Positions 3,227 through 58,385 of a stretch of DNA of 64,000 nt are shown here, piece by piece. The DNA is from a virus. Positions within the stretch are counted from its first letter, which is position 1, and each line of letters starts with the position of its first letter. Location: the IMG/VR virus record IMGVR_UViG_3300049740_002873, positions 9,337 to 73,336 of that record. One strand, written 5' to 3'. The position numbers were made by a program, and so were the translations under genes. Below the pieces are notes generated by a model that worked only from the letters and a program-made list of their open reading frames with translations, was not told the origin of the DNA and did not search any database.

Positions 3227-3762
3227 CTAAATTCTTTCCTCAGTAATCTCCATCTGTCTGAATCTATAGGCTTATTGCCGTCATCTATAGCAAATAACAT
3301 TTCCACAATTTCGTCTACATTGTTATAAATATATTTATGAGGAAACATTCCTAGCATCCAAAGTGGAGTTTTTGATTTTCCGCCTTCCATACTTACGAAC
3401 ACAGGCTTTTTCTCTCTTACCGCTGTAACAATTTCTTCCGCACTCCCCCAGCTTGCGACTTCAGGTACTAAGTGAGCTATAATAAAATCGCTTCTATCGA
3501 CCAAGTTTAAGTCATAAGCTCGAACAGTTTTCATTCTTTCTGTAACCCTATCATACTGTTTTGTTCTCATCCAGGTTTCCATTTCTTGCCTGTTAGCTTC
3601 ATCCTCCTCTACGTCTTTAATAAATGGTTTTTTATAAGGATCAAAACAAGTTATGCTTAAAGGTTGTAGTTTCTCTGCAACATCTTCTCGCCAATTTCTG
3701 CCACTAACATATTGCATATGGCCAACCAGATAGCATTTGGTTTTATATAATAGATTTTTCAT
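3223..3762 (-). CDS. Nucleoside 2-deoxyribosyltransferase / nucleotide N-glycosidase-like protein
   Basis: CYLVG..WRE..FDP..DLNLVDRSDFIIA..GSAEEI..KKPV pattern of the NDT superfamily. Confidence 0.75.
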   Translation of the reverse strand: MKNLLYKTKCYLVGHMQYVSGRNWREDVAEKLQPLSITCFDPYKKPFIKDVEEDEANRQEMETWMRTKQYDRVTERMKTVRAYDLNLVDRSDFIIAHLVPEVASWGSAEEIVTAVREKKPVFVSMEGGKSKTPLWMLGMFPHKYIYNNVDEIVEMLFAIDDGNKPIDSDRWRLLRKEFR

Positions 3763-3769
3763 TCTTATG

Positions 3770-3798
3770 ATTTTAACATAAGAAAAATATAATGTCAA
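3770..3798 (-). promoter_or_regulatory. sigma70-type promoter TTGACA-N17-TAAAAT
   Basis: Perfect -35, TGn extended -10; ATG 7 nt downstream. Confidence 0.8.
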
Positions 3799-14039: not shown

Positions 14040-17000
14040 ATGGCTATTAATCTTGATGTACATGGTAATACAACTCCTCTCGAGGCAGAGGTTCGTGCTG
14101 CAGTCAATAGAATTAGAAAAATTCCCGTCAAATTAAGTATTGACGATAAGGGAGCTACCCAACCATTGGGTAACATGCGTAGAGGCGCAGATGAATTTAC
14201 CAAATCTATGGAGGCCGCTAATGCCCGTATCATTGCTTTCGGAGCCAGTATGGCGATCATCAATGGAGTAGGAAATGCATTTAAGGCTCTTGTGCGAGAT
14301 GTGGTTGAGGTTGAAAAATCTTTGGCAGATATAAATGTTGTCATGGATTTAAGCACAGAAAAACTTGATAAATTTAGTGATGGTTTATTTAAGGTGGCCA
14401 AAGAAACTGGTCAAGCATTTAAGGTTGCTGCAGATGCCGCTACAGAATATGCTAGGCAAGGTTTAGGGGTTGAAGAGTCTTTAAGAAGAACAAAAGATGC
14501 ATTGATTCTTACTAGGTTGACAGGTATGGATTCTGCAGAAGCGGTAAAATCCTTGACCGCTGCAATGAATACATATGGCCATCAAATAGAAAATACTACG
14601 CAGTTGGTTAGTAAGTTTGCTGCAGTTGATGTTAAGTTTGCTGTTAGCGCTGAAGATTTTGCAGATGCTATTTCTAGAACTGGTTCTGCTGCAAAAGGAG
14701 CTGGAGTTGATATTGACGAGTTGATAGGTATAGTAACTGCCGCCCAGCAAAAAACTGCTCGAGGTGGTAAAGTGATTGGTAACTCCTTGAAAACAATTTT
14801 TACTCGTGTTGGAAGAGCCGACACTTTAAATCAATTAGAAAATTTAGGTATTGCTGTTAGAGATATTGAAGGAAATACATTAGGGGCCAAAAAGATTCTT
14901 ACAGATTTGGCGAATACATTTGATACTTTGAGCGAAGCTCAAAAAGCCCAAATCGCACAAACAGTTGGTGGAGTATTTCAAATCAACGTATTAAAAGCAA
15001 TTCTTGGTGACGCAGCAAAACAAAATGGTATTCTTGCTAATGCAACTCAAATATCTGCAAACGCAACAGACGAAGCGATACAGAAAAATGAAATGCTACG
15101 TGGTACTATTGCAGCTATGGCCAGTGAAACTGGAACTGCTATAAAACAATTGAGCAGCGACATCGGAGAAATTGCCTTGGCTCCAGGCATTGAAAAAATT
15201 CTCAGCACAGTCAAAGGTTTTGCTGAAAATTTAAGTGGTGTGCTTGGAGATGGAGAAAGTACAGGTAATAGATTTGCTACAGGCTTGTTGAAGGGTATTG
15301 GTAATATTATTACTGGTCCGGGTCTAGTTGTTTTAGTTGGTGTATTTTTTAAACTTTTTGGTCAAGCTTTTAAATTTACAAGAGATAGTTTAAGTTCTCT
15401 TATTGGAATTACTAGTGAAGCACAAAAACAAAAAGCGATACAAACATCTCTTGTCGATCTTATGGGTCGAAACGCAAATTTAAATAAAGAATTGCTGAGG
15501 ACAGATATCGGGAGATCCGAGAAAGAAAAAATAATTCTAGGCTACTTAAAAGCGCAAGTTGCAGAAGCAAATGTATTAAACAATATTTCAAAGCAGCTCG
15601 CATCCACTTTGTATACAAAAGGTTATGGAGCAAACTTAACTCCCGTAAGAAGGGGTCGAGCTCATGGTTATGTTCCTAATTTTGCACATCCAGAAAGAGA
15701 AGAAGCTGCTAAGGGTGGATATGCAGCAGGCAATATTCGCAGTATGCATATGCCTGGCGAGGGCTCGATTATTTACAATAGCGCAGAGAAAGTAAAAAAT
15801 TTCAAAGGTATGACGCAACCCGCGATTATGCCTCCAGAATCCAGTAAGGCTGGAAAAAAATATCAACAAGCATTTGGGGATATACATGGATTTGATCCGT
15901 ATGCTGCAGGGGGATATATACCTAATTACTCACAAACAACCGCAAACGCTGATAGGCGTATGGTAGTTTTTGCAGCTTCTACTCAAGGAGGTGGTAAATT
16001 TGGTGGTCAAGATAATGTTAATAACAAATTTTTTATATCTCCACCAAAAAAGAAAAACGAATCTTATAAATTTGCTGACGTTAGCAAGCAAGGAGCTAGG
16101 GGTGCGAGCCCAAGGGGGATGATCCCTGTTAATGTTCCATATTTTACAATCGGGAAAAACGACGCAAAATTAAATAACCATCCAGATGTTCAGTCTTTTA
16201 TTTATGCTAAAATGAAAAAAGCTGGGCAAGCAGTTGCACAAGACGTAGCGAATAAACTTTTTAAAGTTAGAGGTGCAAGCGTAAAAAAAATTGAAACCAA
16301 AGACATTGCTGCATCGTCTGGCAATATATTTGAAGCTGCTATTATGGCTGCTCAAAATAAGGTCGCAAGAGAAAGTATGGGCCCTGATCCTGTTGGTAAT
16401 ACATTGTTAGATATTCCCAGAAAAGGCAGAGATAAATTATGGGATTTATTTGGAGCTGGAACCCTTGGTGGTTTGGGCGCCGAAGCCAAAATAGCATTAG
16501 GAGGTTTGGCTTCAAAAGCTGGAAAGCATTTAAAAAGTGCTGCAGAAAAATTTTATAAAGTAGATATAGAGAAAAAAGCTGCATTTGGAGGTCAGGCGCC
16601 AAAAACAAATTTTTCTCAAAGCTCTGCATTGGGTGGTTTGTTAACTAAAAAAGGTAAGGATATTTATGTAGGTGGAGAAAAATTTGATAATTTGTCTGAC
16701 GAACAAAGCAAAAAATTAAGAGGTAAGGGGCTGGAGCCTGGGGGAAAGACGGGCATGTTTAGTTTTAAGCAATTAGAAAATTTGCCGTTTTCAGCGGGTG
16801 GATATATACCTAATTTCGCGGCCATGGCTATATCTAGACTTGGAGGTTTAGGGAAAAGTAAGTTTGGCTTGGCTGCGGTCATAAATTCTAACCCGTACTT
16901 CTCACAACTGCTTAAAAGATACGGTCATTGGAAAAACTTTCCGAGCCAAGAAAAAACAAAATTAAACAAATTTTTATTAAAGCAGGGATTCACGAATCGA

Positions 17001-20000
17001 ACTCTTCAAGGATATGGAATTGCTAGTATGCATGGAAAAAGTATCGGAGAGGGTATTAGTAATGTGGCTGCGGCAGGCGGATACATTCCTAATTTCGCAA
17101 ATCCATTATCTGATGCAATAGGGCGAGAAAGAGCAGCTGGAGTTCCAGTATCTCAAATTAGAGTTGGATCTCATGGAGCTCTTATGAATAAAGATAACCC
17201 TCTTGGTCTTGGCGTAACAAACACAAAGGATGAACCAAATGGTTTACGTGATGTATTTGGCGCAAATGGATATGTACCGAATTATTTTAACCCATTCAGC
17301 TTTGCTAAAGATAAAATTATACAAACTAATTTTGCAAAACAAATGACTTTAGGTGCAAGTAATCTGGAAGATTACAATAAAAAACTAAAAAAACACAAAC
17401 AAGAACAGCAAAAACACTCTGCAGCGGTTAGCAGAATAGAAAAACAACTTCAAAGGAACTTACTTTCTCAAAAAGAAGTAGATCGATTAAATAAAAAATT
17501 AGCAACCGCTAAAAAACATGAAGCCGCAGCTTCTAGAAGAATTGCGTCCACTGCAAGGGGGACAGGAGTCGGCGGTTTTCTTGGTAGGTCAAGCGCTAGT
17601 ATGGGTAGGGCGTTTAGTGGTAATGCAGGAATGATGATGATGATGGGCGCTCCTATGGCCGCTGGATTTGTTCAACAAGGAGGGATGGGTGCGGAAGGAG
17701 GAAGTCAAGCAATGTATGCCGCAGGGGGCGCATTGAGCGGCGCTGCCTCTGGAGCTATGATGGCGAGCATGCTAGCTCCGATGTTTGGACCTGCTGCACC
17801 ATTGGTAATTGGTGTGGGAGGGCTGCTCGGAGGTGTAAAGGGACTAATATCCGCAAACGAAGAAAATACAAAAGCATTAAAAGAAAAAAGCGAACAAGAA
17901 CTAAAAGCTCAAATCCAATCTACATCGCAAGCTGTATCTCAAATAGCTCAAGGGTCAGAATTATCTAGAACATTGTCTTCGGCAGGTATAACCGCACAAA
18001 GCATCGCGACACTTGGACTAAAAGGAGGTGATACAGTTTTACAAGGTTTACAAAAATCTAAGGTTGGTCACTCGGCTCCACAAGCATTAGTTGATGTTAT
18101 GAAACAATATGAAGCGGGTAAAATGAAACCGGTATCTCAAGAAAAATTAAACAGACAGATTGATGTAATTTTAAAAAATGCAGAAAAGGGACGGAAGCAA
18201 TTCGAAAAAACTAGAAGTCAATTGGGAGCATTCTTCGCCCCAAGAGATCGCGATGATATGCGAAGATATAAGGATGTAACATCCAGAGAAGAAGCTTTGG
18301 AATTTTTAAGCAAGCAAAATAATCCTATTGGTAGAGCTGCATTATATACAAAAACAGCACGAGAATATATGGGGGGTACAGGAGATCCTGATTTTTATGG
18401 AATAAAAACAAAGCAACAATTAGAGCTAACATCAAGTGGTCAAGCTCGATCTGAATTGATTGATTATTTAATGGAGAACGAAAAAAAGCAAAGTTTTGCT
18501 TACGATTTCGGCCAAGAAAAAGGGGGTACAGGCTACTTGGATAAAGCTCAGTACGCTGCCCTCTTAAAAGGTCAGGAAGTTGATATTGGTGGTCAAATTG
18601 GGCCACAGAAACTGTCGGAGGCAGCTATTCAGGAAGCGCTCACTAAGGAATCCCAAAGAATTCAAAGTGAATACGTCAACGCGCAAACACAACAAAAAGA
18701 AGCTTTAATTCTTCAACTCAACCTTCAAAAAGCTCAAATTATCGCACAGCAGGCCAGCGCAGACGCACAATTTAAGATAAAAGCAGAGTATATTAAGCAA
18801 TCAAACCTACTTCAAATGCAAGAAAAATTGATGGGGTCATTTATATCCGATAAACAAAAAGCCGAAAATAAATACACAGACTCATTGAACAAAGCTGCTA
18901 AAGCATATAATGCAGGGGCTGAGTCTGCAAAATTAAGTTTAAAAACAGGAATTATGCAAGACATTTTGCAAAACCCTGTGTTAGAACAAGCTTTAAAGCA
19001 AGCATTATTTACAGGTACAGATTCGAAAGATATCACGAAACAAGACCTAACTAATAAACTTGCAAAAATGGATGATAAAGAATTGATTGATACATTAAGA
19101 AATATTAAGGTTGCAGAAGATGATATAAATGAAATTATAGAAAACAGAAGTTTACTCTATGGTAATCAAATTATCAATCTTGAGCGACAACAGAGTTTGT
19201 CGGTTTCTCAGGCCGCAAATGAAAAACAAATCAATCTCGTTCTTTCAGAACGCAAAGAGATTCTGGATGATATGAGCAAGAGAATGGAAGATTTTGCTAG
19301 TAGGTCTCAATTTTTGTCGGAAAAAGGAGGATTAGAGCGAAGAATTTCTGCCGCACAAAGAGAAGGGACCGGTTACATTTCTGCAGATAGACAACTGCAA
19401 ATACAAAGAAGTGAAATGGAAAAATATACTATTCCAGGATTGCAACGACAAGGACGAGCACAAAAAGAATCTATACTCGAGAAAGTTGGAGTAGGTTTTA
19501 GCGACGAGGAGCAAAAGCAAATCATGACCATGCGAGGAAAAGATCTTGATATAGCGGAAGTAGTAAAAGCACAAAGAGGAAGAGAATTTGAGGAGAAGGG
19601 CGGTTCTGCTAAAATACTTGAACTGCAACAATTTGTAGATAACCCATTCAATGCATTCGGTGAAGGTCGTACAGAGGCTCAGATGAAAGAATACGCCGAA
19701 AAAGAAGCTAAGCTTAACGAATTAAAAACTTTAGATGCAGAAAGAAATAAGTTGAGCGACGATTTAAATAAAAAAATATCAGCCGCCAACCGAGACCTAA
19801 AAGAGCAAAACGTATTAAACAAAAAAAATGTAGATACTGTAAACCAAGAAATGCTTGCGCGAGAAAGAATGCACGATAGAATGACTGGCCCTAAGGCTGT
19901 GCAAAACGGTATGCAGGATAGCTTTGCGAAAATGGCAGATAATGCAGACAAAATGAGATATCAAATCGGAGAAAGAATTCCTAATTTATTGGCCGATGGA

Positions 20001-21728
20001 TTAGCTCAAGCAATGCAAGTTGGATTAAATGGCGCAGAGGACATTGGTGACGCTATGCGTCAAATAGGAATAAACTTTTTGCAGGCAATACAATCTGCGT
20101 TTTTGCAACACGCTGCTCATAGTATCGTCGGAAACATGGGATTCAATTTAACAAAAAATGAAGGAGGTAAAATTCCTAGATATTCTACTGGAGGATCTGT
20201 TCCTGCAATGGTAACTGACGGAGAATATGTCATGAGTAGGCAAGCTGTCAACAAATATGGCGGTGCATTTATGCATGGATTGAACGTAAGAGGAAGTGCT
20301 CCTGAGAAATTTAGTCAAGGTGGTTTAGCAGACGCATTTGGTAAATTAGGAACTTATCAAGATAGTGGCTTGGGTCAAGCATTTCAGAATTTAGATCGAG
20401 GTAAAATGAATAACATCTATAGTGAAATGTCTAAGGCTCAACCGAGACAAATGACTATGGACAGAATGAAAACTGCCCAGATGCAAGAAAAGTCACTTCA
20501 AGATTTCTTTTCTAATCCTGCTAAAGCTCAAAAAGGCGGGCCTGATTTGGCAAATAAAACAGTGTTAAACAATTTAATGGATAATAAATCTATTAAACCA
20601 AATCCTGGAAGCTCAGGTCTTATTGGTAATCTTTTAGGTGGGATATTTAGTATAATTACCGCTCCATTTAAAATGATTGGAAATATTTTTGGGGGACTCG
20701 GAAAGTATCAGGGCGGTTTAATCCCTCAAGATATACAAAAATTTGCAGAAGGTGGAGGTGTTGAGAATGGAATTGGTGCGGCGCTCCTGCCACAAAAAGA
20801 GGAAGAACCTAAGCCTGGAACATTAATAAGCGCTCATGGAGGAAGAAGATATCATTCTGGCAGAAAGTATACCAAAAATAGAATGTCTGGATTTTTCTAT
20901 AGTCAATCAGGAAATGTTGGATTAAGAGAAGATGCCGAGGGCTTGCGTAATGAGTTGGCTAAGGAGGAGGCTGCTCGAAGAGCTAGAGAAGCAAAAAAAG
21001 CAAAGAAAAAACAATTTATTATGAGTTTAGTGGGCGCTGCCGCATCTGCAGCAATATCTTATGGCATGAGCGGGGGGTTTAGTGGTGGTGCAGATTCAAC
21101 CCCTTTATCTGGCGATCAAGGAGGAGGGCAGAGCATAATACCTACTACCGAAGGGGGCTCTGGGGTTCCAATAAGCAATTGGGATCTCACTGATGCACAA
21201 TTAGCTAAAGGAGTTACAGTAGGAGGTCAGACTTTTTCAAGTCAACCAACTTTATCTGAAAGACTTAGGAGGCCGATTCATTATAACAATTTTGGGGGGA
21301 AAATCAATAAGTACGCCAGTGGAGGACACATATCTGGCAAGCCTGGTATAGACCAAATTCCAGCTATGCTAAGTGAAGGAGAGTATGTAATTCGCGCAAG
21401 CTCTGCCAGAAAACTTGGAAGAAGTAGGCTAGATCAAATCAACGCAGGAAAGTTTTATGATGGCGGATCTGTATCTTCTGACGATGAAACAAAACAAGAA
21501 ACATCTAGCTCTTCAGGAAATACTAATAATATAAGCATATCAGTCAATGTAACAAATGGTTCTAAAGCAGGAGAAAATTCCGAGTCTTCAATAACAAACT
21601 CTGGGGAAGATAACAGAGATCAGGCAGATAAACAAAAGCAAATGGCGGAAAAAATAAAAGAGCAAGTTGTTTCAGTTATCGTAGAAGAACAAAGACCAGG
21701 AGGATTACTCAGTAAGACTGAATCATGA
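14040..21728 (+). CDS. Tail tape measure protein (TP901-type N-terminal domain), 2562 aa
   Basis: TP901-type region (EYARQG, DAISRTGSAAKGAGVDIDELIG, IGNSLKTIFTR), long helical stretches, hydrophobic segments, C-terminal PAMLSEGEYV. Confidence 0.93.
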   Translation: MAINLDVHGNTTPLEAEVRAAVNRIRKIPVKLSIDDKGATQPLGNMRRGADEFTKSMEAANARIIAFGASMAIINGVGNAFKALVRDVVEVEKSLADINVVMDLSTEKLDKFSDGLFKVAKETGQAFKVAADAATEYARQGLGVEESLRRTKDALILTRLTGMDSAEAVKSLTAAMNTYGHQIENTTQLVSKFAAVDVKFAVSAEDFADAISRTGSAAKGAGVDIDELIGIVTAAQQKTARGGKVIGNSLKTIFTRVGRADTLNQLENLGIAVRDIEGNTLGAKKILTDLANTFDTLSEAQKAQIAQTVGGVFQINVLKAILGDAAKQNGILANATQISANATDEAIQKNEMLRGTIAAMASETGTAIKQLSSDIGEIALAPGIEKILSTVKGFAENLSGVLGDGESTGNRFATGLLKGIGNIITGPGLVVLVGVFFKLFGQAFKFTRDSLSSLIGITSEAQKQKAIQTSLVDLMGRNANLNKELLRTDIGRSEKEKIILGYLKAQVAEANVLNNISKQLASTLYTKGYGANLTPVRRGRAHGYVPNFAHPEREEAAKGGYAAGNIRSMHMPGEGSIIYNSAEKVKNFKGMTQPAIMPPESSKAGKKYQQAFGDIHGFDPYAAGGYIPNYSQTTANADRRMVVFAASTQGGGKFGGQDNVNNKFFISPPKKKNESYKFADVSKQGARGASPRGMIPVNVPYFTIGKNDAKLNNHPDVQSFIYAKMKKAGQAVAQDVANKLFKVRGASVKKIETKDIAASSGNIFEAAIMAAQNKVARESMGPDPVGNTLLDIPRKGRDKLWDLFGAGTLGGLGAEAKIALGGLASKAGKHLKSAAEKFYKVDIEKKAAFGGQAPKTNFSQSSALGGLLTKKGKDIYVGGEKFDNLSDEQSKKLRGKGLEPGGKTGMFSFKQLENLPFSAGGYIPNFAAMAISRLGGLGKSKFGLAAVINSNPYFSQLLKRYGHWKNFPSQEKTKLNKFLLKQGFTNRTLQGYGIASMHGKSIGEGISNVAAAGGYIPNFANPLSDAIGRERAAGVPVSQIRVGSHGALMNKDNPLGLGVTNTKDEPNGLRDVFGANGYVPNYFNPFSFAKDKIIQTNFAKQMTLGASNLEDYNKKLKKHKQEQQKHSAAVSRIEKQLQRNLLSQKEVDRLNKKLATAKKHEAAASRRIASTARGTGVGGFLGRSSASMGRAFSGNAGMMMMMGAPMAAGFVQQGGMGAEGGSQAMYAAGGALSGAASGAMMASMLAPMFGPAAPLVIGVGGLLGGVKGLISANEENTKALKEKSEQELKAQIQSTSQAVSQIAQGSELSRTLSSAGITAQSIATLGLKGGDTVLQGLQKSKVGHSAPQALVDVMKQYEAGKMKPVSQEKLNRQIDVILKNAEKGRKQFEKTRSQLGAFFAPRDRDDMRRYKDVTSREEALEFLSKQNNPIGRAALYTKTAREYMGGTGDPDFYGIKTKQQLELTSSGQARSELIDYLMENEKKQSFAYDFGQEKGGTGYLDKAQYAALLKGQEVDIGGQIGPQKLSEAAIQEALTKESQRIQSEYVNAQTQQKEALILQLNLQKAQIIAQQASADAQFKIKAEYIKQSNLLQMQEKLMGSFISDKQKAENKYTDSLNKAAKAYNAGAESAKLSLKTGIMQDILQNPVLEQALKQALFTGTDSKDITKQDLTNKLAKMDDKELIDTLRNIKVAEDDINEIIENRSLLYGNQIINLERQQSLSVSQAANEKQINLVLSERKEILDDMSKRMEDFASRSQFLSEKGGLERRISAAQREGTGYISADRQLQIQRSEMEKYTIPGLQRQGRAQKESILEKVGVGFSDEEQKQIMTMRGKDLDIAEVVKAQRGREFEEKGGSAKILELQQFVDNPFNAFGEGRTEAQMKEYAEKEAKLNELKTLDAERNKLSDDLNKKISAANRDLKEQNVLNKKNVDTVNQEMLARERMHDRMTGPKAVQNGMQDSFAKMADNADKMRYQIGERIPNLLADGLAQAMQVGLNGAEDIGDAMRQIGINFLQAIQSAFLQHAAHSIVGNMGFNLTKNEGGKIPRYSTGGSVPAMVTDGEYVMSRQAVNKYGGAFMHGLNVRGSAPEKFSQGGLADAFGKLGTYQDSGLGQAFQNLDRGKMNNIYSEMSKAQPRQMTMDRMKTAQMQEKSLQDFFSNPAKAQKGGPDLANKTVLNNLMDNKSIKPNPGSSGLIGNLLGGIFSIITAPFKMIGNIFGGLGKYQGGLIPQDIQKFAEGGGVENGIGAALLPQKEEEPKPGTLISAHGGRRYHSGRKYTKNRMSGFFYSQSGNVGLREDAEGLRNELAKEEAARRAREAKKAKKKQFIMSLVGAAASAAISYGMSGGFSGGADSTPLSGDQGGGQSIIPTTEGGSGVPISNWDLTDAQLAKGVTVGGQTFSSQPTLSERLRRPIHYNNFGGKINKYASGGHISGKPGIDQIPAMLSEGEYVIRASSARKLGRSRLDQINAGKFYDGGSVSSDDETKQETSSSSGNTNNISISVNVTNGSKAGENSESSITNSGEDNRDQADKQKQMAEKIKEQVVSVIVEEQRPGGLLSKTES

Positions 21729-22597
21729 GTTACTCGAACTACGAACAATCCGTTTTTTTTGATGGGTTCAAGCTTTCAGGAGTGCAATCTGTTGCGGGTA
21801 GTTATTCAATTAATGAAAAAGCTATTAATGTGGCAGGCGTTGGTTTCGTAGACTCTATAGTTAATGCTCCAATGCAAGGAGATTTTTCTTTTAATAGGAA
21901 GATGGTAAGTTTTGATCCTGTATTAAGAACTAATTCTATTGGAAAATATTTGTACGATGAAAATGAATTTGATGGTGCAATAGCATATAATAATGACTCG
22001 AATGGTTTTGGTTTTACAAGAGGCAGGGTAAATCGATATTCGGTGACATGCAGCGTTGGAGAAGTTCCTGATATACAAACAAGTATAACAGTATATGGAC
22101 AATTAGGGAAAGATGTTATTAATTATGATAATTATGCAACAGAAGATCATCCTGAAATAAAATTTATAGATCAGTCTAGTATTAAATTATCTGTTAGTGA
22201 TTTTGATATAGATGCTATTAGTGATTTTAGTTATACTCGATCAATTAATCTTAATCCTGTTTATGCTTTAGGTAATGGTGATGCAAGTGATTGGAATCAA
22301 AATTATACAGATTCACAAAATTTAGAGCCAGTTCAGGTTGATACCACTTACCCTATTGAAACAGATATTAATTTTACTATGATTGCAAGTAAATACGAGA
22401 TAAAAAGGATTGCCGATAGACTTGCTGCTTCAGAAGAAAGTGATGTAAGAATTGAAATATGTGATGCAGTGGATAACAATAATATTGTTAATTCTTTTAC
22501 TGGTATAAACATGAAGCTTATGAGCGAAAGTATAAATTCATCAATAGAAGATGAGTTGTCTATATCAATGTCTTACAAAGGTTTCGAAACTTTATAA
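21725..22597 (+). CDS. Tail-tube-like distal tail protein
   Basis: LSGVQSVAGSYS and YSVTCSVGEVP resemble tube motifs VQSANYS and YSVEAAVGAMP; ATGA-coupled to the TMP. Confidence 0.55.
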   Translation: MSYSNYEQSVFFDGFKLSGVQSVAGSYSINEKAINVAGVGFVDSIVNAPMQGDFSFNRKMVSFDPVLRTNSIGKYLYDENEFDGAIAYNNDSNGFGFTRGRVNRYSVTCSVGEVPDIQTSITVYGQLGKDVINYDNYATEDHPEIKFIDQSSIKLSVSDFDIDAISDFSYTRSINLNPVYALGNGDASDWNQNYTDSQNLEPVQVDTTYPIETDINFTMIASKYEIKRIADRLAASEESDVRIEICDAVDNNNIVNSFTGINMKLMSESINSSIEDELSISMSYKGFETL

Positions 22598-22599
22598 TC

Positions 22600-23517
22600 A
22601 TGAGCGAATCATTTTTTAGATTTGAGAATACAAAAATTCAAATAGATGGAAAAGATCTTATGGTTACATCTGCAAATCTTTCTATGGAAACTTCGCTACA
22701 ATCCGAGAGAGTATATGGAGATTATGACGCAGAAATAGATGGTGCTACTACAGAGTTTGTAACTCATAGCCCAAATGCGGGTATACGCGGAACCCTTGAA
22801 GTACAGTTTTTGATTTCTGCAGAAAATTTCGCACAAGAGGGTACGCCAAATAATATAGACCGCTTTTTAGAGATCAAAGCTGGCATGAGCGAAAGATCAA
22901 TTAACGATAATGTTGTGGGGCCGTATGAGTTTGATAATATATATTTAAATAATTTTGGTTTTCAATTGGTTCCGTTTGATTTGGTCAAAGCATCTGCTCG
23001 TTACAGTATATACGGAAGTATTTATAAAGATGCAGCACAAAGGTTGGCGGGCACCAGCTCTAATTTCGCTCACGCTTTTAAGTCATTTAATGATATTAAA
23101 ATTAATAGTGCATCTAGTTATGGAATTTTTGGTAATGATTTTTTCGCTAAGAAACTGCAATATCAAATAAATGTAGAAAGAAAAGCTCAAACAAATATAG
23201 CTAATAGCGAAAGTAGTCTTTTTTCTAAATCTGCTGATGGGGTTGTACCTAAGAGATTATCAGTTTCTAGGATAGAATCAGAAATGAATATAGAATCAAA
23301 TGAAATAGTGCCAGAATTAAATGATCGAGGAGATCAGCAGTCTTCATCTATATATTCAGAAAAAATGCAATCTACAGTAACCGCCTACCTTTTCTCTATG
23401 GGCGGAAATAGGCTTGCGTCGTTTTCTTGTTCTGGAAGAGTAAGCTCTCAAGGTTTTAATGTTAGCGAGGGACAAAATGGAGCTGCAAAAATATCAATAA
23501 AGGGGGTAGTTAAATAA
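22600..23517 (+). CDS. Tail-tube-like / baseplate protein
   Basis: Beta-rich; VTSANLSMETSLQSERVYG tube-like hairpin; lies between the TMP and gpM. Confidence 0.45.
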   Translation: MSESFFRFENTKIQIDGKDLMVTSANLSMETSLQSERVYGDYDAEIDGATTEFVTHSPNAGIRGTLEVQFLISAENFAQEGTPNNIDRFLEIKAGMSERSINDNVVGPYEFDNIYLNNFGFQLVPFDLVKASARYSIYGSIYKDAAQRLAGTSSNFAHAFKSFNDIKINSASSYGIFGNDFFAKKLQYQINVERKAQTNIANSESSLFSKSADGVVPKRLSVSRIESEMNIESNEIVPELNDRGDQQSSSIYSEKMQSTVTAYLFSMGGNRLASFSCSGRVSSQGFNVSEGQNGAAKISIKGVVK

Positions 23518-25697
23518 TGGTATCTCCATATAAAAATAACATACAAAACTATCGAGGTGATTTTGACCCTAATCAAGATTATAAAAAGTTTGATTTTGTA
23601 TATAATCCACAAAATTCATCTTACTATTACGCAACAAATGACGTACCTGCAGGGGGAAGTCTAGAATCTAGTGGAAGTGGTATTGCTTATTATAAGCTTG
23701 ATCTCTCTCTCGCTACTTTAGATTTTGAGGGAAAAAGAATTGGGGGTGTTAATTTTCCAGAATCTAGTAATATACCATATGATCCACAGGGATTAAGGAG
23801 CGCCTTTATTGATGAAAGCTTGAATATATCTGTTGAAGATTACAATCAACTACCTGATCAAACAGAAACTAGAGCAGGGCCTGGATCTAAGTGGTATATA
23901 ACTTTAGGCAAAGACTTTTTCTCTCCGATAAATATTTCTCAATTATGGATTAAGGATTATTTCTTTTTTGACGCAGATTATGGCGCAAGAGTTAGATTTA
24001 AAGCAAACAATAATCAAGTTAATTTTGGTAATGGGTACTACTCTACTCAATTAGAGGATATTAATGCTTTTACTTGTGAATTTGATTTGACTTTTAAAAA
24101 CAGAACCAATAAAGAGGCTAATGCCATAATGCATTTTTTAGAAAATCATCCTGGGTCTCAATCTAGCTCGCCAGAATCAATGTCCTTAACTTATTCTCAG
24201 GGTATTAAGGGTTTTTACTGGGGCGGAGACGCTATTTTTCATCCATACGATTCTGCTGAAATGCAAATCAAGGAATTTCATTGCGATAAATTTTCTCATC
24301 AATTAGAATTTGAAAATAATAATAACCTTAGTGTGACATTAAAAAATTATACAACCTCAATGTTAAATAAGTCTGAATCTCTTTATGTAAAAAGAGCTGA
24401 AAATTATAATTCAAACATAATGTATAATAGAAATGATGTAGTGTTTATGCCTCAAAATCAATCATATTATTATTGTATGAAATCTAGCGGATTAAATGCT
24501 TTTCCTATAATGGTTAGAAATCAATGGTCTAGGCAAGGAGGGTCATATATTGATGTTAATAAAGATATTTGGGCAAGGCATTTTTTCTGGAAGCCATCAA
24601 TAGGTTTAACTATAAGTTCTAATATTAAAAATTATAAAATTAATGTTGGTAATAGTTATACTCAGATATATAAAGGTGGATTAAATGATAATTTACTTGA
24701 GTTTGATTTAGAATTTAATAATAGAGATGATAAAGAAGCTTATGCGATTCTTCATTTCTTGGAAAGCAACTATGGAAATAGGCCGTTTCAATATACATTG
24801 CCTGCTCCTTATAATGAAGAAAGAACTTTTATATGTGAAGAGTGGGAGCATGTTTATAATTATAGAAATAATCATTCTGTAAAAACTAGATTTAAGGAGT
24901 GTCCTATAAAAATTACTCCTGATATACTTGATTCCGAAAAAGATAAATCTCCGACAGTCTTGGGTGATCCTGTTTTAGCTATATTTAGGAATACAACTCT
25001 TAGAAACAATGAGTCTATTTCTGAATTTAAATACTATGAAAATTTAAGACATAGGGTAAAAATAAGAAATTCAGGGGGTAAAGATTTGAATATTTCTTCT
25101 ATGGATTTTTTCGCTCCAGAAAATAATGGTATTGTTTTAAGTTTAGCTGGCCAGAATGGTTCTGCAAGTTGTATAGCTAAGCCTTCAGATTTAAATTATA
25201 GCGTCTATTTGGGAAGAAAAAATTTACCTTTTAATCTTTCGTTTAAAACTGTAGAGTTGGGGCGTTCTTTTACTAACGGAGTAGATGGGGGTTATTCTTT
25301 TTTGCATAATGGGGTGCAATTTTTTCAAAAAAATGATGGTTCAATTATAAACAGAGATACGGGAGAAATTGAAACTAATGTTGACTACTTTATTGTTGAA
25401 AGTTTTTTTAATGCAAATAAAACGAGCGTAATTAAGGCTGGAAAAAGTTCTTATTTTGATGTGATATTTAGGGGTGTTAGTCGAGATCTTTTGGCTGGTA
25501 ATTTATTGGGTGAGGATGAGGCTGGTTTATATAATATAGAGGCAAATCTCATGAATAAAAATGGTAGTTATGGTAATAGGTATTTGGAAGCTTTTTCTGC
25601 ATCCGTATATTTTTATAGTACATTAAAAATAATCAGTAATTCTTATTATAATAATGGTGTTGATGAAGTTAATTTTAAAATACTAGTTGATACTTGA
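23517..25697 (+). CDS. Minor tail protein, lambda gpM-like, two tandem domains
   Basis: Two copies: FFFDAD..FGNGY..FDLTFKNR..AIMHFLE and FFWKPS..VGNSY..FDLEFNNR..AILHFLE. Confidence 0.75.
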   Translation: MVSPYKNNIQNYRGDFDPNQDYKKFDFVYNPQNSSYYYATNDVPAGGSLESSGSGIAYYKLDLSLATLDFEGKRIGGVNFPESSNIPYDPQGLRSAFIDESLNISVEDYNQLPDQTETRAGPGSKWYITLGKDFFSPINISQLWIKDYFFFDADYGARVRFKANNNQVNFGNGYYSTQLEDINAFTCEFDLTFKNRTNKEANAIMHFLENHPGSQSSSPESMSLTYSQGIKGFYWGGDAIFHPYDSAEMQIKEFHCDKFSHQLEFENNNNLSVTLKNYTTSMLNKSESLYVKRAENYNSNIMYNRNDVVFMPQNQSYYYCMKSSGLNAFPIMVRNQWSRQGGSYIDVNKDIWARHFFWKPSIGLTISSNIKNYKINVGNSYTQIYKGGLNDNLLEFDLEFNNRDDKEAYAILHFLESNYGNRPFQYTLPAPYNEERTFICEEWEHVYNYRNNHSVKTRFKECPIKITPDILDSEKDKSPTVLGDPVLAIFRNTTLRNNESISEFKYYENLRHRVKIRNSGGKDLNISSMDFFAPENNGIVLSLAGQNGSASCIAKPSDLNYSVYLGRKNLPFNLSFKTVELGRSFTNGVDGGYSFLHNGVQFFQKNDGSIINRDTGEIETNVDYFIVESFFNANKTSVIKAGKSSYFDVIFRGVSRDLLAGNLLGEDEAGLYNIEANLMNKNGSYGNRYLEAFSASVYFYSTLKIISNSYYNNGVDEVNFKILVDT

Positions 25698-25698
25698 T

Positions 25699-26913
25699 AT
25701 GTCTTTTAAGTCTACAGATCATTTAAATAAAGAAATTTTTTCTTTAAGTCCTGACGTTCTTGTCAATTTGTATGAAATAGATTTTAGTAATTTACAGCAT
25801 AATTTTGAAATCCTGCAAGATCAATTTGGGGTAACGGTAGGAGAAGATTTAACTTATAGATTTTGTGGGGCGATAAATGGTTCAAACCCTATTATATGGC
25901 AAGGTTTTAGTTATCAACCTTTACCTATTAATAGTGAAGGGTTTGAGCATAAAGCTGACGGCAGAATGGCTAGGCCTAAGTTATTGGTGGCAAATCCTGA
26001 TGGGTTGTTTTCAAGAATATTAAAAGCCAATCAGGACTTTGTGGGATGTAAAATTACTAGAAAAAGAACTTATGTTAAATTTTTAGATGCAGAAAATTTT
26101 CAAAACAGGAATTCTTTTGAGGGCATTAACCCTTTTGGAGAAAGTGATCCAGACGCTCATTTTCCTGATGATGTATATTTTATAAATAAAAAGATTACAG
26201 AAAACAGGACATCCTTAGAGTTTGAGTTAGTCTCTGTATTGGAGATTGAGAATGCTTATATCCCTGGGCGAGTGATTCATTCTAATTTTTGCTCATGGTC
26301 TTATCGTTGTAGTATTGGCTGTGGCTATAAGGGTAAACCTATTGAGTCTGCGAAAGGAGGCTCATTTATTGACAAGATGTATGAAATTAATAGCAGTATT
26401 AGTGGTGAAATCATAAATAATTTAAATAAAAAAGTAGATGACATTGAGTCTTGGAGCCATAACAAAGGAAATTATCGGGTTGGTGACGTTGTAAAAATAA
26501 TAAACGAAAATGAAAAAAATCCATATAAAAGAGTGCCATTTGTTTTTGTTTGTACAAAAGATCATGTATCCGGCTCGAGGTACTATCCTTTTTTTAGGCA
26601 AGATTACTGGTTAAAGGATGAATGTTCGAAAACAATTAATGCATGCAAGAAAAGATTCGGAAAGCATCAATATGATTTTGCAAAATATGTTGATATCAAT
26701 GGCGATGTGCTTTCTGAGTATAAAAATAACAATCCGGATGGCTTGACGAAAATTCAGTTTGGGGAGAAGTATTGGGATACGTATGGAAGAGCGGAATATA
26801 AAAATCCAGATTCAAATTCAAGTCACAGACCTCCGCCAGAAATTGGTATAACCGATGAAGGCCATCTTCCATTCGGAGGGTTTCCTGGTACGCATAAGTA
26901 TGGATATGTTTAA
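25699..26913 (+). CDS. Minor tail protein L (lambda gpL-like, Fe-S cysteines)
   Basis: LYEIDF, WQGFSYQPLPI, RKRTYVKFLDAENF, CSWSYR..CGY, DECSK...CKKRF, LPFGGFPG. Confidence 0.92.
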   Translation: MSFKSTDHLNKEIFSLSPDVLVNLYEIDFSNLQHNFEILQDQFGVTVGEDLTYRFCGAINGSNPIIWQGFSYQPLPINSEGFEHKADGRMARPKLLVANPDGLFSRILKANQDFVGCKITRKRTYVKFLDAENFQNRNSFEGINPFGESDPDAHFPDDVYFINKKITENRTSLEFELVSVLEIENAYIPGRVIHSNFCSWSYRCSIGCGYKGKPIESAKGGSFIDKMYEINSSISGEIINNLNKKVDDIESWSHNKGNYRVGDVVKIINENEKNPYKRVPFVFVCTKDHVSGSRYYPFFRQDYWLKDECSKTINACKKRFGKHQYDFAKYVDINGDVLSEYKNNNPDGLTKIQFGEKYWDTYGRAEYKNPDSNSSHRPPPEIGITDEGHLPFGGFPGTHKYGYV

Positions 26914-27223
26914 TCAGGATCTTGAATCGCAATTAATTAAATTTTCTGAAAAAAATAATGAGCAAGAGTGTTGTGGATTAATAGTAAGTTCGGGCGAGAA
27001 TTTAAAATTCATTGCTTGTGATAATATAAATCCAGATCCTAAATATATGTTTACTATAGATCCTGCGTGTTTTTTGAATAGAGATGTAAAGTATGTCTTT
27101 CATTCTCATGTGATTGGCAATGAAAAGCCGTCTAAGTTAGATATTAAAAACTGTAAAATTGTGGATATTCCTTATATAATATATTCGTTGAAAACTAAAA
27201 AATTTTTTTTATTAGAAATATAG
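26900..27223 (+). CDS. JAB/MPN metalloprotease (lambda gpK N-terminal-like; no NlpC/P60 domain)
   Basis: ECCGLIV and HSH...PSKLD JAMM motif; start at 26900 or 26906. Confidence 0.88.
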   Translation: MDMFNQDLESQLIKFSEKNNEQECCGLIVSSGENLKFIACDNINPDPKYMFTIDPACFLNRDVKYVFHSHVIGNEKPSKLDIKNCKIVDIPYIIYSLKTKKFFLLEI

Positions 27224-27248
27224 TGTAATAGGTGAAAGGTATAAGGTA
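27223..27248 (+). promoter_or_regulatory. GTGTA putative late promoter plus AAGGTATAAGG leader element
   Basis: GTGTAATAGGTGAAAGGTATAAGGTA-ATG. Confidence 0.65.
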
Positions 27249-30200
27249 ATGAAGAGGGTCTTTTTATATGGCGATTTAAAAAGACGGTTTTGTAACTCAA
27301 TCGAAGTTGATGTGAGTGGCATAACCGACCTTGTTCATGCTTTAGAAGCTAATTTTGATGGATTTACTAATCATGTTATCCGTAGATATATAGAAGGTAA
27401 TGAATACGCTTTCTTGAAGAAAGATCCAAAAAAAATAGAAAACCAGGAGGATTTGCAAAGTAGTATAGTATCTAAGGATTCAGATTATATATTAAGCTCT
27501 AAAGAAAAAGAAGTTCATATTATTCCTTTTTCAAGTGGAGGAGTTGTGGCCAAATTCTTTGGCGCTAAATTATTTGGAAAAATAATGTCGGCTATTGTTT
27601 GGTCTGCTGTAGCTCAAGTCGCTATGAATATATTATTCAAACCTCCGAAGCAGAGAACGCCTAAAACTATAAGCACTAAATCTATGATTTTGAACGCAAA
27701 GGCTAATAGCACAAGCCAAGGCTCTCCAGTCCCTGTTGGATATGGAAGATTAAGAGTGGGCGCAGCAAATATATTAACATATCAAAGCAACAAAACAACT
27801 TCAGGAGGTGCAACCGGAATTGAGTCTGCGAGCGAAATAGAATTTGTGGATTTAATTTCAGAAGGCCCAATAGGTGGTTTTGCTGACGAAAAAGGTCTTC
27901 CGGTTGGAGGTGGTGGAGTGGGTGCAGGCGCAACCCCTTTAATAACTCAGAAATCAGAGGAGAATTTAAAGGGTATATATCTAAATGACACTCCCGTACT
28001 TGGTTCTCATGGATTTAGAAATTATATACTTAATGAGAGGGAGAATGGTTTTCCAGAGTTATCTGTTGGCGTAAATAATCCTACAGGTAGCGTCATTAAT
28101 AAAGCTTCTTATATGAAAAATTATGATCTAGATTTAGTGGGTCCAAGTTTTGAGAATTTACAAGGTGCGACAAATGCTGTAGTAAATTCAGTGGCTGCTG
28201 CATATTTACTTCCTGAAGATGTAATCAATCAATCTGGTTTACCTGTTGCTCATCGAGTTTATAACGAAAATATTGATATTGTCACATTCGCGTTAACAAG
28301 TCAGCAGCAACATCAGAACGTTAAAAATGCTGATACACAAGCTAGAACAGTGATTTTTTCTATATCTTATGCATTTGGATTAAATTCTAGTAATAACAAT
28401 GAAGCTGTTGGAACTCCAATTCAATTAGGATTTGAAAAAAATGATAACCGCTCAAGTTTTTTTACGCCAGGTATTTCTCCTGTTAAAGACCAATTTTTTA
28501 TGAGTGATGCAGTGGGAGATGGTGAGTATGGATTATTCTCCTATTATAATAAAGATGATCAGAAACCACCAAAACTATATAATAATTTATTTAATACTCA
28601 TGGTGTGGCTTCGAGCGCTTTTCAGTTTGATATTAGTGTTAGATTTAGCGAAGAAACTAAAAGGAGAATTAAAAATGAAGGTATTACTTTTAGGATACTT
28701 AAGCATAGCGTAGAATTGGATCCTGCAGCAAAAGGTGCTGTTGGTGGGGCAAATAACGTACAATCTTTAAAGCTTGATTATGTTCAGGAAATAACTGCGG
28801 CAAATTTTACTTATCCTAATAGCGCTATATGTAAATTACTGATAGATGGAAAAAACTTTTCTTCTGCCCCTGAGAGAACTTATCATCTTTTTTTGAAAAA
28901 AGTTTTAGTGCCTTCTAATTATGATCCTGTGTCTAGAACTTATGATGGCGCATGGAGCGGATCTTTTCATAAGGATGGATCTGATACTGAGTCAATCTCT
29001 AATTTAGGGGACTCTCATAGATTTTGGACCAATAACCCTGCTTGGATTTATTTTGATTTAATTACGAATCCAAGATTCGGACTTGGAAGAAATGGAGTTG
29101 ACTACGAATTTGTTAATAAATGGCAGTTGTATAAGATAGCTAAATATTGTGACGAATTGGTTTCAACTAGTTATCCAATAGAGACTTCTGATGGAAATTT
29201 AGTTGATTTTAAATATGAAAATGAAGGTGCTGCTGTTGATGAAAAGGGTGAATTTACTGTCAAAATAGATATCGATCAATATAATAGGTCTGTCGAAGAT
29301 TTTGGAGAAGGAACAAGTTTTGCAGGTAAGCTTGTTGCTTTTTTCATTGGTGACGATATTGATGTAAATGATTCCAGTAAAAATTTAGAAATTTATCAAA
29401 GAGAATTAAAGAGAGTTGATAATAACAACAATACAATCATCTTGAAGGGCCCATCTTTACCTACAAAAATAGTTGATGATGTTAACGTTTCTATTGGTAA
29501 GTGCGCACTTCAAAAGAATCATAAAATTGTTGAGCCTAGGTTTTCTTGTAATGTTTATATCAATGAAAAATCAGAGGCTCTCGATTTAATTAATAAACTT
29601 GCTTCAGTTTTTAGGAGTATTAATTCTTATTTGGGTGGTAAAATTTATGCGATACAAGATGTTCCTCAGGATCCTATTCAAATATTTAATAATAGTAATG
29701 TGGCTAATGGGGAGTTTAATTATAGCACTGCGGACAAAAAAAGAAGGATTACAGCTTGCGTTGTTCAATTTGTGAATGAAGATAAAAATTATGATGTTGA
29801 TTCTGTTTACGAAGAAGATGCTTTTGCTATGCAAAGGTTCGGGTTTGTTCAGGAAGAAATTGTTGGATTTGGCGTAACTTCCTCTTCTCAGGCAAGAAGA
29901 TTGGCGAAATGGAATTTAATAGCGTCTCAGTCAGAAAATGAAATTATAAAATTTAATGTATCTCAAGAGGGAGCTTATTTATACCCGAATTCAATTATAG
30001 AAGTATCTGATGAAAATAGAATAAGTAAAGAAAAAAGCGGAAGAATAAAGTCAATGGGCGAGAGTTACACAAAAATAAGCGGAGGCTCAGAAATAGTGAT
30101 AGATAAACCTTATTTTGAACTAGATAAGGATATCACAAAAACCCCAAGCGGAACTCCTGTTGAAATAAAAATAGCCAGAGGTATTGGTAATATTACAACA

Positions 30201-31745
30201 GAAGATCTCGAGAGCTCTTCCGCTTTAGAATCGGATCATGGAGTAGATCAGGATGTAATGATCGAAGGGTTCTTTTCTGAGCAAATCGTCATATTTCAGG
30301 GAGTGTTGTCTCAAATTCAAAATTCTCATGGATTTCAAAATATAATAACAGACTTAATTTTAAAAAGATCTATCGAGATTAATGTTTTAGAAAATTTTAT
30401 TCTATGTAAAAATCATGGTTTTCCAGAAGGAGCTAAAGTTTCTTTTTCATCTGATGGGGTACTGCCTTCTGGGATAAAATCTTCTTCCGTCTATTCTGTT
30501 ATAAATTCTTCCAAAAATTCTTTTCAGTTAGCGATTGGAGGAAATGTTATTAAAATTTTTGATAAAGGTAAAAGTGATTTAATGGAGAATGGTGGTCAAC
30601 ATTATGTTTATTATAGTAACGATTCAGCTAATAAAGAAAAAACTATAATAGAAATGAACTCAATCGCCTTTGGTGCTGCTTACAATATAACCGGGTTTAG
30701 TGGGGATATAGCTGGCGATTCAGAGCTTGCGTACAAAAGTGGCGGCGGGAATGTTTTTAGTGTTTTAAATAATGTTGTTGATGGCATGGTTCCAGGCTGG
30801 TATTCTGCGGATTTTTTGGGAAGTTTTTTCGTATCTCCTAAAAGTAAATTTTATGTATACAGTTCTAAGCGATTAGGGTGGGTTTATATATCTCCAACTT
30901 CTAGTAAGGATTCTTTAATTATACATAAAGAATCGTTTGGGTGGATGTATAAAAAGCAATATATAAGTGATAACTGGTGGTATATATACGAAAAAAAATC
31001 TTGGGCTTTTTTGTTTGGCGGAGAAGATGATTATGTATTTATCTTGGGGCAGGATTACTACGATCAATATAATGTTGGTGATATTTTTCCTTTTGGGCTT
31101 GGTACAACTTATGAAGTAGTTGCTAAAGTGAGCGAAGGTATTTGGATATCAAGCGGAGGTGCTTGGGAGGACCGTTTCGAATACACCCCCTTAACTCAAT
31201 CAGCGGCGCCAGATTTGAGCGCCCCATCTTCTAGAGTAGTAGCTATAGAAAGTTATGAATATATTTCTGCCAATGATTCTGTTCAGAAAAAAGATTCTGT
31301 TGTTGTTAAGTTATTTTCTAGTGATGATATTGATTATAATACTGTGTCAGAATTTTTTATTAAAATATCTTCTAAAAGCACGTTAGTAAATAAAAATTGG
31401 CAGGTTATATTCAGAGGGGGGCGCAGTTTTGAGCTGATAGATTCTGAACACGACTCGGGGTTTCAAGGTGGAGATGCTGGTGTATTAGATAGCGTTACCA
31501 TAGAAATAGATTTTTCTATGTTATCCGAAAGGTATTTTAGGTCTCAATTATATAGAGTTTTAAGTGTAAAAGAAGCCAAAGGGAACTCTTATGAAGTTAT
31601 CGCATCAGAATATAACTCTTCTAAATATAGAGCAGCAGATTCTTCCGGTTTGGTCGAGTCTCCTATACTCCCTTTACCTCCTCAGGCAAACATGTCTGTT
31701 CCTGCAACCCCTTCAAATTTAAGGATTGATTTAACTTCTACTTAA
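27249..31745 (+). CDS. Fused tail assembly protein I + tip attachment protein J (N-terminal part)
   Basis: gpI: ubiquitin-like N-terminus VFLYGDL..IIPFSSGG and QGSPVPVGYGRLRVG. gpJ: DLISEGPIGG, IYLNDTPV, WTNNPAWIYFDLITNPRFGLG, EPRFSCN, GVTSSSQARR. Confidence 0.9.
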   Translation: MKRVFLYGDLKRRFCNSIEVDVSGITDLVHALEANFDGFTNHVIRRYIEGNEYAFLKKDPKKIENQEDLQSSIVSKDSDYILSSKEKEVHIIPFSSGGVVAKFFGAKLFGKIMSAIVWSAVAQVAMNILFKPPKQRTPKTISTKSMILNAKANSTSQGSPVPVGYGRLRVGAANILTYQSNKTTSGGATGIESASEIEFVDLISEGPIGGFADEKGLPVGGGGVGAGATPLITQKSEENLKGIYLNDTPVLGSHGFRNYILNERENGFPELSVGVNNPTGSVINKASYMKNYDLDLVGPSFENLQGATNAVVNSVAAAYLLPEDVINQSGLPVAHRVYNENIDIVTFALTSQQQHQNVKNADTQARTVIFSISYAFGLNSSNNNEAVGTPIQLGFEKNDNRSSFFTPGISPVKDQFFMSDAVGDGEYGLFSYYNKDDQKPPKLYNNLFNTHGVASSAFQFDISVRFSEETKRRIKNEGITFRILKHSVELDPAAKGAVGGANNVQSLKLDYVQEITAANFTYPNSAICKLLIDGKNFSSAPERTYHLFLKKVLVPSNYDPVSRTYDGAWSGSFHKDGSDTESISNLGDSHRFWTNNPAWIYFDLITNPRFGLGRNGVDYEFVNKWQLYKIAKYCDELVSTSYPIETSDGNLVDFKYENEGAAVDEKGEFTVKIDIDQYNRSVEDFGEGTSFAGKLVAFFIGDDIDVNDSSKNLEIYQRELKRVDNNNNTIILKGPSLPTKIVDDVNVSIGKCALQKNHKIVEPRFSCNVYINEKSEALDLINKLASVFRSINSYLGGKIYAIQDVPQDPIQIFNNSNVANGEFNYSTADKKRRITACVVQFVNEDKNYDVDSVYEEDAFAMQRFGFVQEEIVGFGVTSSSQARRLAKWNLIASQSENEIIKFNVSQEGAYLYPNSIIEVSDENRISKEKSGRIKSMGESYTKISGGSEIVIDKPYFELDKDITKTPSGTPVEIKIARGIGNITTEDLESSSALESDHGVDQDVMIEGFFSEQIVIFQGVLSQIQNSHGFQNIITDLILKRSIEINVLENFILCKNHGFPEGAKVSFSSDGVLPSGIKSSSVYSVINSSKNSFQLAIGGNVIKIFDKGKSDLMENGGQHYVYYSNDSANKEKTIIEMNSIAFGAAYNITGFSGDIAGDSELAYKSGGGNVFSVLNNVVDGMVPGWYSADFLGSFFVSPKSKFYVYSSKRLGWVYISPTSSKDSLIIHKESFGWMYKKQYISDNWWYIYEKKSWAFLFGGEDDYVFILGQDYYDQYNVGDIFPFGLGTTYEVVAKVSEGIWISSGGAWEDRFEYTPLTQSAAPDLSAPSSRVVAIESYEYISANDSVQKKDSVVVKLFSSDDIDYNTVSEFFIKISSKSTLVNKNWQVIFRGGRSFELIDSEHDSGFQGGDAGVLDSVTIEIDFSMLSERYFRSQLYRVLSVKEAKGNSYEVIASEYNSSKYRAADSSGLVESPILPLPPQANMSVPATPSNLRIDLTST

Positions 31746-48939: not shown

Positions 48940-48941
48940 TT

Positions 48942-58350: not shown

Positions 58351-58385
58351 TTTATTTATTAGTTGATTGTATTTTTTAAAAATTT

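Follow-up and report, generated by a model that had tools for sequence, protein, structure and literature searches.

The tape measure proteins (TMPs) of mycobacteriophages carry an embedded enzyme, polymorphic toxins have their specific marker motifs, and cleavage of a TMP has, to our knowledge, been documented for the phages T5 and lambda only. TMPs with an embedded enzyme (T5 pb2 and gp96 of the Thermus phage P23-45), TMP processing (T5, lambda) and marker peptides in polymorphic toxins are all known already. Here we investigate a TMP of 2562 residues (aa), encoded at 14040..21728 on the + strand of a viral stretch of 64,000 nucleotides (nt), positions 9,337 to 73,336 of IMG/VR record IMGVR_UViG_3300049740_002873, which we refer to in its entirety as the window. 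In the N-terminal half of this protein a short peptide recurs five times, separating segments that an earlier note, made from the letters of the window, had taken for cargo domains of a possible processed polyprotein.

The TMP of T5, pb2, is cut after R1127, between its hydrophobic stretch and its muralytic domain, and both pieces remain in the tail (Linares et al. 2023, PMC10038345). Like the present protein, it is a long TMP that combines a hydrophobic stretch with a module set apart from the ruler; it differs in having one site, near the C-terminus, and in that the released piece is a known muralytic peptidase (PMC10038345). The window TMP has five candidate sites in its N-terminal half and modules of no known family, and shares no detectable homology with pb2 beyond six residues. 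Lambda gpH is matured to gpH* and gpHC, with a cut site that is unmapped and a catalyst that is unknown (PMC12617516). The likeness to lambda lies in the gene order, in which the TMP gene is followed by gpM-, gpL- and gpJ-like genes, and in the GG...GE[FY]V elements that both proteins carry in a C-terminal region rich in glycine, whereas gpH has no array of fenced modules. The giant TMP of P23-45, gp96, has a folded N-terminal module that acts in the cytoplasm, a virion RNA polymerase delivered with the tail, but this is one large enzyme of known activity, and the accessible text mentions neither a repeated fencing motif nor cleavage of gp96 (PMC10770324). Polyvalent proteins of phages and conjugative elements are likewise large virion-delivered proteins that string together disparate modules, for which release by processing has been proposed; their defining features are recognisable enzymatic domains together with embedded peptidases, and the term 'tape measure' is absent from the accessible text (Iyer et al. 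2017, PMC5512222). No enzymatic or DNA-binding domain of the polyvalent type was found in the window TMP or in five giant relatives, whose motif copies number up to 11; in all of these proteins PF10145 was the only Pfam family above threshold. In polymorphic toxins, too, a short conserved peptide borders a fast-changing, recombining module, but there the variable domain lies at the C-terminus of a toxin that bacteria secrete and that is paired with an immunity gene (Zhang et al. 2012, PMC3482391). In the window TMP the variable module lies inside a structural protein of a phage, and no toxin family was detected. We found no literature on a modular TMP array in which each module is fenced by one conserved peptide used for exchange, and searches on the motif strings and on TMP processing and modularity, with subscription journals and supplements outside their reach, returned no description of the motif.

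A repeated peptide and the segments it separates

The TMP gene was identified from its open reading frame (ORF), from Pfam and from PHROG: the TP901-type domain PF10145 (PhageMin_Tail) matches aa 120-311 (14397..14972, + strand, as are all TMP features below) with an E value of 4.2e-28 and a score of 99 bits, the cutoff being 33.2, and the N-terminal 450 aa are matched by 12 PHROG tape-measure families. The repeated peptide has the consensus A-x-G-[YH]-[IV]-P-N-[FY]-A or, in a slightly wider form, A-x-G-[YHF]-[IV]-P-N-[FY]-A. The regular expression G[YF][IV]PN[YF] matches the TMP at aa 543, 625, 921, 1014 and 1077 (nt 15666, 15912, 16800, 17079 and 17268), which agrees to within a few bases with the five sites of the earlier note; the spacings, 82, 296, 93 and 63 aa, bear out those that it gave. 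In full, the copies are AHGYVPNFA (motif 1, aa 541-549, 15660..15686), AGGYIPNYS (motif 2, aa 623-631, 15906..15932, the main mosaic breakpoint described below), AGGYIPNFA (motif 3, aa 919-927, 16794..16820), AGGYIPNFA (motif 4, aa 1012-1020, 17073..17099) and ANGYVPNYF (motif 5, aa 1075-1083, 17262..17288), the last of which is followed by the helical ruler. Motifs 1, 3 and 4 were delimited by the regular expression and a profile, motif 2 by the regular expression and DNA breakpoints, and motif 5 by the regular expression, the profile and AlphaFold2 (AF2) models.

From composition, 1.6e-4 copies would be expected. When all six frames were searched for strict matches, both in the window and in the whole contig of 73,336 nt, these five were returned in total, all inside the TMP ORF. 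With a profile of 14 columns derived from relatives, the five sites reach 30-38 bits, the next-best position scores -8.3, and the highest maximum among 200 shuffles was 13. Across 516 instances in relatives, Ala occupies -2 in 93% and +6 in 80%, both positions outside the search pattern, and Asn occupies +4 in 99%, where the pattern permitted N or S. The five DNA copies differ at synonymous positions, so it is the peptide that is kept and not a nucleotide string, although copies 2 and 3 have 16 identical bases. Judged by this codon usage and by its conservation, the motif is a linear peptide maintained at the protein level. In AF2 monomer models the copies lie in unstructured linker, with a predicted local distance difference test score (pLDDT) below 50.

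The array region of the TMP retrieves a large family: one database yielded 1013 matches out of 7998 proteins scored, and a second one yielded 847 cluster representatives, nearly all of them TMPs of 2000-5000 aa. Relatives occur on viral contigs of up to 205 kb. Among species-representative genomes, relatives occur in metagenome bins only; four of the six loci are labelled Flavobacteriaceae or Flavobacteriales, and the other two are short contigs of a single 'Proteobacteria' bin. A tblastn search of the array region against 50,697 phage records gave no match, and we know of no cultured member of the family. When the window TMP, its database twin and 119 close relatives are taken together, four motifs are found in 83 proteins, five in 35, six in 2 and three in 1. 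The number ranges from 0 to 11 in 134 more remote relatives, several of which are fragments, and those with no strict motif read A-x-G-[LMFY]-[IV]-P at the same positions, followed by variable residues. Three of the remote relatives (P0144, P0148 and P0216) are TMPs of 2232-4959 aa with 7-11 strict copies; PF10145 is the only Pfam family above cut-off in them too, and there are many further module types.

Every module has one copy of the motif on each side. Clustering 678 inter-motif segments gave four large families (193, 171, 155 and 28 members), which correspond to the four segments of the window TMP, plus many small ones. An architecture filter was passed by 111 of the 119 close relatives, to which the identity figures with respect to the window refer. 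Module 1 (76 aa between motif cores, 15684..15911) is 78-99% identical, with 34 invariant columns in 25 sequences, and module 4 (57 aa, 17097..17267) is 79-100% identical, with 25 invariant columns in 20 sequences. Module 2 (290 aa, 15930..16799) is hypervariable, at 16-70% identity with a median of 23. For comparison, identity is 63-99% in the N-terminus and, over the 400 aa with which the ruler begins, 21-79% (median 27). Module 3 (87 aa, 16818..17078) has a counterpart in the minority: 31 of the 111 relatives fill this slot, 5 of these with a module at least 85% identical to that of the window and 18 with one at 45-55%. The slot before module 4 is without a module in 80 relatives, and holds a module of 86-94 aa in 21, an unrelated module of 135 aa together with one of 94 aa in 2, an unrelated module of 121 aa in 5 and an unrelated one of 244 aa in 2, one more case being an artefact of the regular expression. 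By these alignments, modules 1 and 4 form a core that is collinear and nearly invariant in the relatives, and the module 3 slot is truly optional, so that two of the four segments that the earlier note had taken for cargo belong to the core.

As had been claimed, the four segments look unrelated to one another: BLASTP finds no match among them. Homology between modules 1 and 4 was considered and rejected: a comparison of their profiles aligns only motif columns, namely a stretch of 13 shared at their ends (D-x-[YF]-x-A-x-G-[YF]-[IV]-P-N-[YF]). An AF2 model of the whole array, from a 21-row alignment, has a mean pLDDT of 43 and is confident in module 3 alone, which forms a helical domain (pLDDT 69-89). 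Module 2 modelled by itself, from a 20-row alignment of sequences 22-72% identical to that of the window, reaches a pLDDT of 68.8 and a predicted template modelling score (pTM) of 0.61 with a mixed alpha/beta fold, and modules 1 and 4 stay below a pLDDT of 50. Thus the description of the segments as globular-looking suits modules 2 and 3 and not 1 and 4, and the same division applies to their basic character, with isoelectric points of 9.9 (module 2, net charge +21) and 10.5 (module 3) against 8.25 and 6.8 for segments 1 and 4. None of the four is predicted as plain helical ruler, in line with the original observation. A homotrimer prediction for module 1 with both of its motifs, in three copies, scored 0.27 against a mark of 0.42, and we use it as evidence neither way.

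In the 20 sequences of the module 2 alignment, G761, F764, E765, D791, K817 and K837 do not vary and E815 occurs in at least 90%, and a Glu...Asp...Glu-x-Lys pattern is visible by eye in other module-2 types too. The resemblance of this pattern to restriction-type nucleases of the PD-(D/E)xK superfamily makes a nuclease-like reading no more than a lead. The searches did not confirm it: Foldseek against the PDB gave a best E value of 1.0, and VIA-align against 48,161 chains a best Z of 4.0, with two restriction enzymes at noise level among unrelated rows, Bse634I (Z 3.1, root-mean-square deviation (rmsd) 4.8, 108 aligned) and Cfr10I (Z 3.0, rmsd 5.9, 115 aligned). Comparison with BFVD (best E 0.09) did not rise above noise, the best ESM Atlas score, 0.76, was below the useful range, and a PDB sequence profile produced one match at E 7.1. 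No Pfam family matched the window's module 2 at E values up to 5, and 19 other module-2 sequences had weak matches only (best E 0.029, at most 2 members per family), none to a nuclease family. For the whole-array model, the best VIA-align hit (Z 5.1) fell on helices of a low-confidence model and was disregarded. A search for module 2 as a free-standing gene of 142-592 aa returned three matches, all of which are TMP pieces by sequence, and within that size range there is therefore no evidence for a pool of standalone cassettes. On this comparative evidence module 2 is one very divergent, TMP-specific family and not a pick from a cassette pool. The 'cargo cassettes' and 'early effectors' of the earlier note are therefore unsupported as stated, given that two segments are core, that module 2 is TMP-specific and that no segment matches a known enzyme family or fold.

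Exchange of modules at the motif

Two relatives (P0008 and P0013) share 99% identity with the window across aa 1-630, a stretch that ends at the last residue of motif 2; over aa 631-894 they show no similarity to it, after which module 4 is again 98-100% identical and an extra module of 135 aa is present. Another locus (L007) has the window's optional module almost unchanged together with a module 2 of unrelated type.

At the DNA level, we took 68 non-redundant loci and collected the internal ends of DNA matches of at least 93% identity and at least 500 nt inside TMP genes. Within 15 nt of a motif centre lie 39 of the 61 ends, where random placement predicts 1.1, and 22 of the 61 lie within 9 nt, compared with 0.7 expected. 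Motif 2 accounts for 30 of the 39, and motif-centred breakpoints are present in 32 of 34 locus pairs. The ends are not independent events and partly mark the boundary between a conserved and a variable module, which tempers the contrast. Even so, where several kb at 93-98% identity give way to no similarity at all, this is replacement and not drift. With 39 of 61 breakpoints near the motif and about one expected, exchange of modules at the motif between related phages is nevertheless supported by these alignments, and the proposal of the motif as a junction for cassette exchange is upheld by the variation in module number, the contents of the slots, the P0008/P0013 mosaics and the DNA breakpoints.

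Possible processing at the motif and competing explanations

As an overall explanation we favour, with a probability of about 0.45, a module array combined with cleavage at the motif. The five motifs are the joints of an array placed, in this giant siphovirus TMP, between the N-terminal TP901-type domain with the first hydrophobic stretch (aa 415-448, 15282..15383) and the long helical ruler. In the favoured model they would also direct processing, with the TMP being cut into separate pieces at the motif either while still in the tail or when it is ejected. By ungapped alignment to T5, where the cut falls one residue after Pro, the bond would be the one after Asn (..[IV]-P-N|[FY]-A). The modules would then no longer be attached to the ruler and could exit the tube as polypeptides of their own, immediately before the DNA. 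A Kyte-Doolittle scan places the array between the first two of four hydrophobic stretches, the second of which (aa 1239-1274, 17754..17861) is rich in Gly, Ala and Met; the remaining two lie at aa 2192-2221 (20613-20702) and aa 2326-2345 (21015-21074). With its net charge and invariant Glu...Asp...Glu-x-Lys residues, the fast-evolving module 2 might act on or bind nucleic acid or a host-specific target, a suggestion weaker than that of cleavage.

The cleavage step, that the TMP is cut at the motif into separate pieces, is one that we put a little short of even odds. In its favour, a site is found at every junction and in predicted linker, and the motif matches the one TMP cut site available for comparison. 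In the T5 record the context of R1127 reads ...GNANSFVPR|AEGG..., and when the motif profile is run along pb2 this cut site ranks first of 1206-1214 positions in three window sizes. For the six-residue core it scores 8.9 bits against -2.7 for the runner-up, a value reached anywhere in 4 of 1000 shuffled pb2 sequences. The match is, on this comparison, real but short, and makes the cleavage reading somewhat more plausible.

A number of observations weigh against cleavage. The T5 match extends over six residues only, the 14-column profile is not significant at that site (301 of 1000 shuffles), and the Gly that is invariant in the motif family is Ser there. Since the cut site of lambda gpH is unmapped, it offers no second test of the idea, and the best core match in gpH (GGMIPMF, aa 104-110, 4.6 bits) is far from the C-terminal region of the cut. 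Remote relatives replace N-[FY] by E-M, Q-A, K-F and others and keep only A-x-G-x-[IV]-P, so that a protease would need to recognise the part before these residues. Pfam showed no protease family in the 40 window ORFs scanned, a scan that did not extend to the 9.3 kb of the contig outside the window, and in 106 related loci there was no split gene at the motif, the copies being in one unbroken ORF and never at a gene end. For none of the modules was a recognised fold or enzyme family found.

Several of these observations are what one would expect if the motif were instead an uncleaved docking or assembly peptide, for example a strand or turn that keeps TMP chains in register, or a segment that binds the tube lumen or the tail assembly chaperone, at places where the coiled-coil ruler is interrupted by a non-helical module within a single chain. 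The absence of a protease gene among the window ORFs scanned and of motifs at gene ends, the flanking of every module by a motif copy and the conservation at the protein level all fit such a role, as does the core kept in remote relatives, which resembles a binding peptide. Modules 1 and 4 and the motifs are also unfolded in the monomer model, as segments that become ordered only in an assembly would be. This explanation leaves the T5 cut-site match unaccounted for, however, and names no binding partner; we regard it as possible, at odds of about one in three.

The concentration of breakpoints on the motif could also be explained if the peptide had no protein function and were a recombination linker, a short shared sequence that enables in-frame swaps and is carried along with them, for which the identical bases of copies 2 and 3 could be cited. 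The synonymous differences among the copies argue in the other direction, given that the amino acids are kept in more than 500 instances across relatives that are 40-60% identical elsewhere. In addition, motifs 1 and 5 border regions that are not swapped, and 18-27 nt is short for homology-driven exchange, which makes this a very unlikely explanation.

Asparagine peptide lyases use an Asn to attack its own peptide bond, and one could speculate that the Asn conserved at +4 makes the motif a self-cleaving site, with the T5-aligned cut directly after it, but we consider this the least probable reading, since the residue aligned with it is Arg in T5 and one of E, Q, K, A, S, G, D or R in remote relatives, and there is no conserved fold around the motif to catalyse the reaction.

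Returning to the preferred reading of an array cut at its joints, it can be extended to the proposal that G-x-[IV]-P with its flanks is a general TMP processing code, common to T5 pb2 and the present family of aquatic phages and multiplied here into a polyprotein, whose fast-evolving nuclease-like module and optional modules would be cut free, injected before the DNA and swapped in the manner of polymorphic toxin tips. We consider this wider form unlikely.

Relatives of the motif also occur outside the array. A looser pattern, GG-x-[IV]-[PSN], is found nine times in the TMP where 0.5 would be expected, and the last 520 aa contain six of these copies. Two of the six head GG...P...GE[YF]V elements (aa 2042-2477, 20163-21470), which resemble both aa 737-760 of lambda gpH and the beginning of T5 pb2C. 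The first of these joints ('GG..IP.. GEYV', here GGKIPRY..GEYV; aa 2042-2075, 20163..20264) was recognised by eye in comparison with T5 and lambda, and the second (aa 2419-2471, 21294..21452) is matched by phrog_13338 on aa 2420-2471 at E 2.3e-9. The five-fold motif may, judging from these patterns, be a specialised form of a commoner GG-x-[IV]-[PSN] joint of TMPs. An alignment of T5 FVPR-AEGG with KIPR-YSTGG of the TMP, made by eye, is an impression, and BLASTP of the pb2 C-terminus against the C-terminal joint is not significant (E 1.1), which again does not help the cleavage reading. In lambda gpH (J02459), SFGGMIPMFRG (aa 102-112) stands directly before the predicted N-terminal membrane segment.

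Genomic setting and wider bearing

The window is part of a 73,336-nt contig with a G+C content of about 31-40%. Downstream of the TMP gene the tail tip genes occupy 23517..31745 on the + strand and comprise a gpM-like gene (23517-25697), a gpL-like gene (25687-26913), a small minor-tail-protein gene (26855-27223) and a gpJ-like gene (27249-31745), identified by Pfam (Phage_min_tail, Phage_tail_L, Phage-tail_3) and by PHROGs 14, 18 and 30. Since gpM-, gpL- and gpJ-like genes follow the TMP gene, the tail is, as read from its gene content, lambda-like and non-contractile. Two ORFs of 290 and 305 aa between the TMP and gpM-like genes (21725-23517) have no Pfam or PHROG match. Tail assembly chaperone genes usually lie directly upstream of the TMP gene; the three ORFs directly 5' of it here (95, 280 and 328 aa) are without a match. 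After the gpJ-like gene, an ORF of 3187 aa (31747-41310) has a lone CBM_5_12 carbohydrate-binding match (E 2.1e-18), and the minus strand has two more giant ORFs without annotation, of 1477 and 910 aa, within 55618-62819. Genes of nucleotide metabolism and replication are found at 1047-3798 and 47817-49319; features annotated in these regions are a GNAT gene (1642-2136), an IMPDH/GMP-reductase-like gene (2137-3117, E 1.5e-62), a nucleoside 2-deoxyribosyltransferase-like gene (3223-3798), a deoxynucleoside monophosphate (dNMP) kinase-like gene (47817-48374) and a single-stranded DNA-binding protein (SSB) gene (48942-49319).

The family indicates that the N-terminal half of a ruler protein can serve as a modular, recombining platform, which is relevant to the question of what, apart from DNA, is delivered by tailed phages, and to the relation between the lengths of tail and TMP in proteins where several hundred residues do not belong to the ruler. 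With more than 800 clusters and 3-11 copies of a peptide similar to the one site that has been mapped, the family would offer a direct handle on the determinant of TMP cleavage. Should the general processing code prove true, it would name this long-unknown determinant and define a tail-borne, exchangeable effector system.

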